Source: Candidatus Borrarchaeum weybense (lineage in GTDB: Archaea; Asgardarchaeota; Sifarchaeia; Borrarchaeales; Borrarchaeaceae). From it: a stretch of 64,000 nucleotides of DNA. The stretch covers positions 517,038-581,037 of the forward strand of contig JAHQJS010000006.1 in the NCBI GenBank assembly GCA_019057385.1, read 5' to 3'. The position numbers and the translations under genes are program-made. Under the pieces are notes generated by a model, which saw only the letters and a program-made list of their open reading frames with translations, had not been told where the DNA came from and made no database searches. Of the stretch, positions 14,755 through 26,274 are shown piece after piece; positions within the stretch are counted from its first letter, which is position 1; each line of letters opens with the position of its first letter.

Positions 14755-15020
14755 CTCCTCCTTTAACGTGTGTTAAAGTAGTTTGGTTCTCTTCGCCAAG
14801 GTTATCAGTCAGTACTATACGATGATCACTGAGAGTTTCCTCTCTGTTTAAACCACCATTTACAGAGCAAGGGACTAGAGAAGCATCCCTTGGTGTGTTC
14901 TTGAACTCTCCTGATAACATAGATACCGCCATAAATTATATGGCCTCTCTTAGGCTAATCAACTAATTACTCTTGCTCCTCACGGAACAAGCCCCATCCT
15001 TTTAGGGTGGGGTAATTGAC
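14755..15020 (-). ncRNA. omegaRNA scaffold of IscB
   Basis: About 265 nt upstream of iscB, with typical blocks: GTCAA..CCCC..GGGGCTTG, TAGTTGATTAG, ACACC..GGATGCTTCTCTAGTCCC..GCTCTG, TTAAACAG, AACCTTGGCGAAGAG. The guide would come from the flank at 15021-15040. Confidence 0.85.
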
Positions 15021-25506: not shown

Positions 25507-25609
25507 TTACTCCAGCGATCCATACTAAGTTTTTTCTACGGAAACTTAAAATCATGGTGGGGATTCTTAGCAAAAAATCAACAGTTTGTAGACATTTAGT
25601 TAAAAGTGG

Positions 25610-26274
25610 GTGGTTCTTATTACAAAACCAATAATTGAAGTCCAAAATGTAGTTGCTTCTGGCGAATTCGATCAAAAAATTGACCTTCTACATATAGCAG
25701 CATCATTAGACAGAGCGGAGTACAATCCTGAGAGCTTCCCAGGCTTAGTCCTGCGAGTTTCAGACCCCAAGGCGGTCTTTCTGCTTTTTAGCACAGGCAA
25801 ACTCGTCTGCACATTTAGGAGCCATCAGTTCTTAAAGCAGAATGGAGGTAAAAGTAAGGAAGACGTCTATGCGGCAATAGAAACGCTTGTAAAACAACTG
25901 AGAAGTATTGATATTAATGTAAATAGCCCTCCGAAGGTAAAAATCCAGAATATGGTCGCATCTGTTACCCTTGATTTCAGCATAAATTTAGAAACGATAG
26001 CACTGACTCTGGAGAACAGTCTATACCTTAAGAGACATTATTCTTCCTCTTAGGGAGGCAGATGAGCCAGAGCAGTTTCCAGGACTCATTTACAGGATGG
26101 CAGTGCCAAAGGTTGTTATCCTCATTTTTGGATCTGGAAAACTCGTCTGTACATTTAGTAGGTGTATTGCTCCTAAAGCAGAATGGAGCTAAAAGTGAGG
26201 AACAAATACACGAAGCCGTGGATATTCTTGTAAAAGAATTAAAGGAAATCGGAGCAACAGAAGAACCTAAATAG
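25610..26274 (+). CDS. tbp: TATA-box-binding protein with 4 exons (25610-25812, 25843-26024, 26062-26152, 26184-26274), 188 aa after splicing
   Basis: Both TBP repeats are present: [26 protein letters not shown]|GGKS and QNMVAS..ENSLY|[19 protein letters not shown]|GAKS. 665 nt minus 30+37+31 nt gives 567 nt, or 189 codons including TAG. Confidence 0.93.
25813..25842 (+). other. BHB intron 1 of tbp (30 nt, in frame)
   Basis: CTGC-ACA(bulge)-TTTAGGAGC-catca-GTTCTTAAA-GCAG-AAT(bulge). Cutting after the 2nd nt of each bulge gives TGC AC|T GGA (C-T-G). Confidence 0.88.
26025..26061 (+). other. BHB intron 2 of tbp (37 nt, contains an in-frame TAG)
   Basis: GTCT-ATA(bulge)-CCTTAAGAG..CTCTTAGGG-AGGC-AGA(bulge), with exon stems CA/TG and CTCTGG/CCAGAG. 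Splicing gives CTA T|AT GAG CCA (L-Y-E-P). Confidence 0.88.
26153..26183 (+). other. BHB intron 3 of tbp (31 nt, frameshifting)
   Basis: CTGT-ACA(bulge)-TTTAG..CTAAA-GCAG-AAT(bulge). Splicing gives TGT AC|T GGA GCT (C-T-G-A). Confidence 0.88.

Follow-up and report, generated by a model that had tools for sequence, protein, structure and literature searches.

The pre-mRNA of cbf5 in Crenarchaeota contains a BHB intron (Watanabe et al. 2002; Yokobori et al. 2009, PMC2738675), a short tRNA-type intron in a protein-coding gene that is cut by the tRNA splicing endonuclease. It occurs once per gene, and its patchy distribution has been read as the outcome of gain and loss. In the tRNA genes of Thermoproteales, families of transposed introns have been described (Sugahara 2008; Fujishima et al. 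2010, as cited in 10.64898/2026.10.13.758758); as summarised there, related BHB introns are found at different sites of one genome and are spread over many genes, and each new site needs to provide a BHB. Of 1,062 tRNA introns of Asgard archaea, 1.5% fall into families of at least 80% identity, against 28.3% in Thermoproteales (10.64898/2026.10.13.758758). The survey that reports these figures (bioRxiv, October 2026) examined copying, mobile elements and reverse transcription as ways for an intron to reach a new site, and none of them proved to be a general route.

Two other classes of intron provide points of comparison. The presence of group I and group II introns that spread by homing is tied to a short flanking exon haplotype, and the intron is found together with its flank as a patch on diverged backgrounds. 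Where spliceosomal introns occupy the same position in eukaryotic paralogues of ancient origin, they are usually read as inherited from before the duplication (Vosseberg et al. 2022, PMC9120149).

The TBP gene of Candidatus Borrarchaeum weybense, an Asgard archaeon, resembles each of these systems in part. It lies in a stretch of 64,000 nucleotides, here called the window, which was analysed as a whole and whose first base is position 1. Like cbf5, it is a protein-coding gene with short introns of the tRNA type and a patchy distribution of them; unlike cbf5, which has one intron per gene, the sole TBP gene has three, two of which are copies at paralogous sites. The resemblance to the Thermoproteales families, as far as they are outlined in the survey cited above, lies in the related BHB introns at different sites of one genome and in the need for a BHB at the new site. 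Those introns reside in tRNA genes, whereas the TBP pair resides in an mRNA, in two internal repeats of one gene, and shows evidence of repeated exchange, with exon bases moving along with the intron. Asgard tRNA introns share the phylum, the splicing system and many recent gains with the TBP introns (10.64898/2026.10.13.758758); they show almost no copying between genes, whereas the TBP pair is a clear case of copying in the phylum. As with group I and group II introns, the TBP introns are tied to their exon flanks and lie in patches on diverged backgrounds, but the 30-nt TBP intron encodes no ribozyme, homing endonuclease or reverse transcriptase, so its spread must rely on host recombination. 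Like spliceosomal introns of paralogues, the pair shares position and phase in duplicated sequences; here, the duplication of the TBP repeats is vastly older than the introns, and the shared position therefore means copying into the paralogous site. The literature searched did not yield any account of BHB introns in TBP or in protein genes of Asgard archaea. The copying of BHB introns is itself already known; what is new is an intron copy within the internal repeats of a protein gene, with ongoing exchange.

The TBP gene and its carriers

TBP is encoded by a single gene in the window, which is also the only TBP locus of the genome (4.18 Mb in 8 contigs, completeness score 100%). Its reading frame is interrupted three times:

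25554–25609, plus strand: remnant copy of the gene's 5′ end (ATGGTGGGGATTCTTA..) and spacer, upstream of the TBP start; not an intron
25610–26274, plus strand: TBP gene with three interruptions
25610–25812, plus strand: exon 1, with a provisional GTG start at 25610 and the 3′ end ..CTC GTC TGC AC
25813–25842, plus strand: intron 1 ("G-type"), 30 nt, in frame and without a stop codon, with a predicted BHB fold
25843–26024, plus strand: exon 2, collinear with intron-less orthologues; its end at 26024 agrees with the RNA contig from X19
26025–26061, plus strand: intron 2, 37 nt, with the predicted helix GUCU/AGGC and bulges AU^A and AG^A
26062–26152, plus strand: exon 3, with the 3′ end ..CTC GTC TGT AC, represented in the RNA contig and in the Pfam TBP match
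26153–26183, plus strand: intron 3 ("T-type", a diverged copy), 31 nt, frame-shifting, sister of intron 1
26184–26274, plus strand: exon 4, ending in the stop codon TAG at 26272–26274

The region of the gene that begins with exon 1 matches the Pfam TBP family with an E value of 1.2e-32, and exon 3 (26064–26151) with 1.8e-11. Removal of 25813–25842, 26025–26061 and 26153–26183 yields a complete protein of 188 amino acids. The exon junctions (GKLVCT|GGKS, ENSLY|EPEQ and GKLVCT|GAKS) are set by five close, collinear and uninterrupted orthologues (P0002–P0006), whose identity to the query is 87–90%, the query including intron 1. Since the genome has a single TBP locus, splicing of TBP is obligatory, and the presence of spliced introns in the only gene for this core transcription factor makes tRNA-type splicing essential for all transcription in this organism.

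Three classes of intron-carrying alleles were compared: W, the allele of the window; A, found in three assemblies (L001, L282 and L283); and B, found on one contig of one sample (L281). All three carry the three introns at the same positions. The spliced protein of W is identical to that of A over 183 residues, and the DNA surrounding the gene in W is 91% identical to that in A and about 75% identical to that in B.

The 5′ end of the gene is duplicated (25554–25613): a copy of the N-terminal codons (ATGGTGGGGATTCTTA..) is followed by a spacer and then by the working start, which is GTG at 25610 in the window and TTG in allele B. The spacer measures 26, 50 or 76–77 nt, depending on the relative. 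An ATG upstream of the TBP start opens a reading frame of 26 codons that is out of frame with TBP and overlaps its start. The idea that the 50-nt insert beside the start codon is a fourth intron was dismissed, as no BHB can be drawn for it, and in allele B the removal of the 76-nt version would break the frame.

Predicted structure and splicing

Intron 1 is predicted to fold with a 5′ bulge AC^A, an inner hairpin of 9 bp, the GCAG strand of the central helix and a 3′ bulge AA^U (−14.4 to −16.0 kcal/mol). The exon strands of the central helices are located as follows:

25807–25810, plus strand: CUGC, exon strand of the 4-bp central helix of the intron 1 BHB, pairing with GCAG at 25837–25840
26147–26150, plus strand: CUGU, exon strand of the central helix of the intron 3 BHB, pairing with GCAG at 26178–26181 and including one G-U pair

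The 3-nt bulges (ACA and AAU/AAA) and the 4-bp helix that define a BHB are present in the copies of introns 1 and 3, with CUGY and GCAG pairing in six of six. Over these six aligned copies the proposed structure is 90% paired, and its central helix 100%, against 40–53% when the partners are slid; covariation statistics from six copies are too weak to add to this percentage. The inner helix (UUUAG../..YUAAA) is strong, with 5–9 bp. The outer helix has 3 bp, lies beyond a small internal loop and differs in register, being CUC/GAG in the G-type and ACU/GGU in the T-type. As modelled, introns 1 and 3 are relaxed BHB motifs of the HBh′ form. Intron 2 is unrelated to them in sequence and is likewise missing from the intron-less orthologues.

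In splicing, the exon CUGY would pair with the intron GCAG to form the central helix, the 5′ cut being placed in the bulge AC^A. The inner hairpin would close the intron, and the 3′ cut would fall in AA^U or AA^A, beside the weak and variable outer helix. The host splicing endonuclease would make both cuts, and RtcB would join the exons. The genome encodes RtcB (PF01139, 582 bits) and two EndA paralogues (PF01974, 99 and 77 bits):

G000:C4:663429–664055 (L289 1156–1782): EndA paralogue of 208 residues with a catalytic motif of the Tyr/His/Lys type
G000:C5 (L290 1420–2091), minus strand: EndA paralogue of 223 residues without the His of this motif

This pairing suggests an alpha-beta heteromer, a kind of EndA that is known for its broad substrate range. 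There is also a second RtcB-like gene (L292, G000:C1:13917–15008), which matches its Pfam family in two pieces (1–88 and 132–426) that are 36 nt apart and which may be interrupted or diverged.

Removal of introns 2 and 3 is seen in RNA. One metatranscriptome contig from X19 joins 26024 to 26062 across intron 2, and another joins 26152 to 26184 across intron 3, the latter without ambiguity and with flanks that differ from the window at 0 and 1 positions. At both introns, the joint corresponds exactly to cuts behind the second base of the predicted bulges. RNA cover extends to introns 2 and 3, and the lack of it at intron 1 is not evidence either way; two further runs, X18 and X20, contain only relatives or parts of exons and do not bridge intron 1. 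A DNA contig matching the strain type (X3) retains introns 1 and 2. As intron 1 is in frame and free of stop codons, it could in principle be retained. All 30-nt versions share this property (25813–25842 in the window, 1969–1998 in L001, and 2052–2081 and 2393–2422 in L281), and only the 31-nt version of intron 3 in the window shifts the frame. In this version, part of the interior (AGGUGUA) can pair with the intron's own 5′ splice site (UACAUUU, window 26150–26168); the alternative fold is more stable (−12.7 vs −8.7 kcal/mol) and would hide the BHB.

Relationship between introns 1 and 3

Introns 1 and 3 both split the Thr codon of GKLVCT|G(G/A)KS between its second and third base, at sites that are 340 nt apart in the gene. 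They have six bases in common at the 5′ end (ATTTAG) and ten at the 3′ end (TAAAGCAGAA), and the 27 bases of exon that flank them differ at two positions (TGC/TGT and GGT/GCT). Elsewhere, the two TBP repeats are strongly diverged, with 51% DNA identity over 219 aligned nucleotides, against 25 of 27 in the flank. Where the repeats encode the same residue, 7 of 8 codons are identical inside the flank and 13 of 32 outside it. An earlier sequence-only reading of the window had described the pair in these terms, as sister sequences at one position in two otherwise diverged repeats, and its account of position, coordinates, ends and context stands. It had also held that the introns differ only in the hairpin interior; the ends are indeed shared, but in the window the interiors are essentially unrelated, and the overall identity is 22 of 31 positions (71%).

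Common descent is therefore less well supported by the window alone than by the relatives. Of the 16 shared bases, four (GCAG) are forced by pairing with the exon CUGY, and we estimate the chance of sharing the remaining 12 at about 1e-4 or less. In allele A, introns 1 and 3 are identical at 24 of 30 positions (80%), and in allele B at 30 of 30; in both alleles, the matches include unpaired loop bases. This confirms the kinship of the two introns, and the possibility that they would prove unrelated across relatives did not materialise. If a copied family is recognised by identity of about 70–80% or more at different sites of one genome, above what shuffled sequences would give, the TBP pair belongs to one, at 100% in B, 80% in A and 71% in the window.

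The copies are not sorted by site. Intron 1 of B equals intron 3 of both A and B, and is thus of the T-type, and it differs from intron 1 of W and A, which are of the G-type, at 5–6 sites. In the single contig that represents B, the paralogous copies (0 differences) are accordingly closer than the orthologous copies of intron 1 (5–6 differences). That orthologous introns do not cluster is the signature of sequence passing from one site to the other once the lineages had separated, whether by gene conversion or by a second copying. The first exon bases on the 3′ side also follow the type of the intron and not the site, being AGGTG after the T-type and TGGAG after the G-type; in B, both sites have the same 30 nt followed by the same AGGTG. 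The Cys codon on the 5′ side follows the site, every carrier having TGC in the first repeat and TGT in the second. It lies 3 nt upstream of the intron, so that a conversion tract would have to end within 2–3 nt on this side, which is unusually tight.

Exon flanks with and without introns

Over the 27-nt flank, repeat 1 and repeat 2 differ at 2 positions in W, 4 in B and 7 in A, compared with 6–14 in 16 intron-less genes. None of the latter is as homogeneous as W, and intron-less orthologues with equally similar flanks, which were sought as counter-evidence to homogenisation, were not encountered. Nevertheless, the 5′ flanks of the two repeats agree at 12 of 14 positions in the intron-less L010, and the 5′ flank typical of carriers occurs without an intron in repeat 1 of L002 and in repeat 2 of L010. 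Ancestry or the demands of the protein sequence may therefore account for much of the likeness.

Carriers have GGA or GGT as the Gly codon behind the intron, which could pair with CUC or ACU of exon 1. At intron-less sites this codon is mostly GGC, with GGA at repeat 2 of L006 and L010. The sequence-only reading had offered homogenisation by copying, or constraint by BHB pairing, as the reason for the identical flanks. Homogenisation agrees with the low counts in W and B, but it is not general, given the 7 differences in A, the site-specific Cys codon and the 5′ flank of L010. Pairing agrees with the Gly codons of the carriers, but GGA is also present where there is no intron to pair with. Taken together, these comparisons suggest that both processes contribute to the likeness of the flanks and that part of it is simply ancestral.

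Distribution and probable exchange between species

Four other species of the genus show no interruption: TBP is uninterrupted and of full length in G001 (two copies), G003 and G004, and G002 yields fragments without stops or inserts. The TBP genes of L002–L008 are intron-less, and intron 1 is missing at exactly the same point in L002–L011. Uninterrupted genes are also found in one class-level relative and in about 50–55 other Asgard genomes. The introns are lineage-restricted, hence a recent origin fits. This upholds the core of the earlier proposal, which was that an intron had recently been copied to the paralogous site.

The distribution of differences along the gene points to short exchanged segments. 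Between allele A and the nearest intron-less allele, L002, 21 of 31 differences lie within 21 nt of the intron sites (Fisher p = 3e-6), and pairs of alleles with the same intron state show no such clustering. Between alleles A and B, the exons differ by 11.5% and the surrounding DNA by about 25%, yet introns 2 and 3 are letter-identical together with 10–25 nt of flank, in identical runs of 73 and 57 nt. In the coordinates of the window, compared with L001 and L281, these runs correspond to:

26015–26086: stretch around intron 2 that is identical in A and B
26139–26195: stretch around intron 3 that is identical in A and B

Conversely, intron 2 of W differs from that of A at 11 of 37 positions despite surroundings that are 91% alike. 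The history of the introns is decoupled from that of the exons.

Exon 1 of W groups with intron-less alleles. AU tests reject the monophyly of the carriers over the 5′ part of exon 1 (p = 0.007) but not over exons 2–4 (p = 0.48). The TBP gene is a recombinant mosaic. The simplest reading of these patterns would be that patches consisting of an intron and its flank have been exchanged between species by short-patch homologous recombination. As the gene is a mosaic and the outgroup is too distant, a TBP tree did not resolve the order of gain, and the polarity of gain versus loss is formally undistinguished by it.

A donor was proposed to be recognisable by the pair of ends ATTTAG..TAAAGCAGAA, and none emerged: no such pair and no further copy of the intron exists elsewhere in the 4.18-Mb genome. 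A search for the intron pattern in 400 Asgard genomes gave three matches, compared with two for the reversed control; all three lie in uninterrupted open frames and were dismissed as chance matches. Wide scans of genome and metagenome contigs for the intron ends returned, among the matches listed (at least 120), chance matches in AT-rich bacteria and none with a TBP context, and are uninformative on donors.

Origin of the paired introns

The explanation that we consider probable is that introns 1 and 3 are copies of one BHB intron, which was copied at the DNA level between the two repeats, and that patches have since been swapped between species. Their status as copies follows from homology; the DNA-level mechanism and the direction of copying we infer. 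The second copy would have arisen by ectopic gene conversion or template switching between the repeats, whose near-identical GKLVCTG codons would provide homology and would also offer the intron, from the outset, a sequence with which it can pair. Once the lineages had split, sequence would again have passed from one site to the other, and patches of an intron and its flank of about 50–75 nt would have been swapped between diverged species by homologous recombination. Owing to this recurrent exchange and interspecies movement, the history is not one clean copy event. The homology arms at an intron-less target measure only about 14 + 13 nt, which counts against copying at the DNA level, and no recombination intermediate or donor direction is visible.

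Convergence would make the two introns unrelated, with similar ends forced by the exon context and the preference of the endonuclease. In the window, only structure-forming ends match, and GCAG is dictated by CUGY, as convergence would have it; the identity of 30/30 in B and 24/30 in A, down to unpaired loop bases, already contradicts it, and intron 2, which is spliced despite its different sequence, indicates that the enzyme does not demand the ends of introns 1 and 3. We regard convergence as very improbable. A donor outside the sampled sequences, be it a mobile element, a virus or another gene, could have inserted at least twice independently into a target of the form ..GTCTGYAC|NGG. Both sites offer this same target, and introns on diverged backgrounds with identical copies in A and B are what a spreading element would leave behind. 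Set against this are the lack of a further copy in the own genome and in the 400 Asgard genomes and the fact that a 30-nt insert encodes nothing able to move it; the wide scans, with only chance hits among the matches listed, are not a strong negative. Such a donor seems unlikely.

The sequence-only reading had named reverse splicing as one route. In its full form, the excised intron would be reverse-spliced into the site of the other repeat in the TBP mRNA, reverse transcribed and recombined into the gene. This would account for an insertion that is exact to the base and in the equivalent codon phase, and for the untouched, site-specific Cys codon upstream, as expected if the intron alone had moved. 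The movement of 3′ exon bases with the intron type is not predicted by pure intron insertion, and we know of no demonstration that splicing by EndA and RtcB can be reversed. The route is disfavoured by the search for an RVT_1 reverse transcriptase, which found none in a genome with a completeness score of 100%; the Asgard tRNA-intron survey, too, reports no signature of reverse transcription (10.64898/2026.10.13.758758). Of similarly low probability is old vertical inheritance at both sites with precise loss of all introns in the intron-less relatives. The shared intron positions of the three carrier classes and the unrejected monophyly of carriers over exons 2–4 are in line with it, and the carrier-like 5′ flanks in repeat 1 of L002 and repeat 2 of L010 could be footprints of loss. 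It would need several precise triple losses within one genus, and it conflicts with the rejection of monophyly in the 5′ part of exon 1 and with the grouping of intron 1 of B with intron 3. Introns that are identical in A and B against a background that differs by about 25% fit slow inheritance poorly, and the original copying event would still be required. Both of these routes are improbable, and copying at the DNA level between the repeats is the reading with which we continue.

Implications for intron mobility

The TBP locus is a rare direct record of a protein gene that acquired a tRNA-type intron at a new site by copying. It makes the question of how BHB introns reach new sites testable, as donor and recipient lie in one gene, intron-free alleles exist and the copies in B are still identical. 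Tentatively, and with rather less assurance than for the copying itself, BHB mini-introns in the protein genes of Asgard archaea might be seen as passively mobile DNA: without an enzyme of their own, they would be copied to paralogous sites ready for pairing, homogenised by conversion and passed between species, through ordinary homologous recombination, as patches of 50–75 nt with their flanks. If this holds, TBP shows that introns at the same position and phase of ancient paralogues can arise by copying and not by inheritance, and does so in a living relative of the eukaryotic ancestor. This would call for caution in studies that take shared intron positions in old paralogues as proof of a pre-duplication intron.

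Other observations

Some TBP matches in other Asgard genomes resemble interrupted genes and were rejected as such. Matches in G015, G030 and G044 that contain single in-frame stops are not lengthened, hence these are not introns. The split TBP match in G014 (L293, G014:C72:15800–16800), a distant Asgard lineage with a small genome, is instead explained by an in-frame protein insertion of about 40 residues in TBP repeat 2, which is rich in Cys and Glu. Elsewhere in the window, 14781–15020 on the minus strand matches the Rfam family HEARO, an IscB-associated omega RNA, with 134.9 bits.
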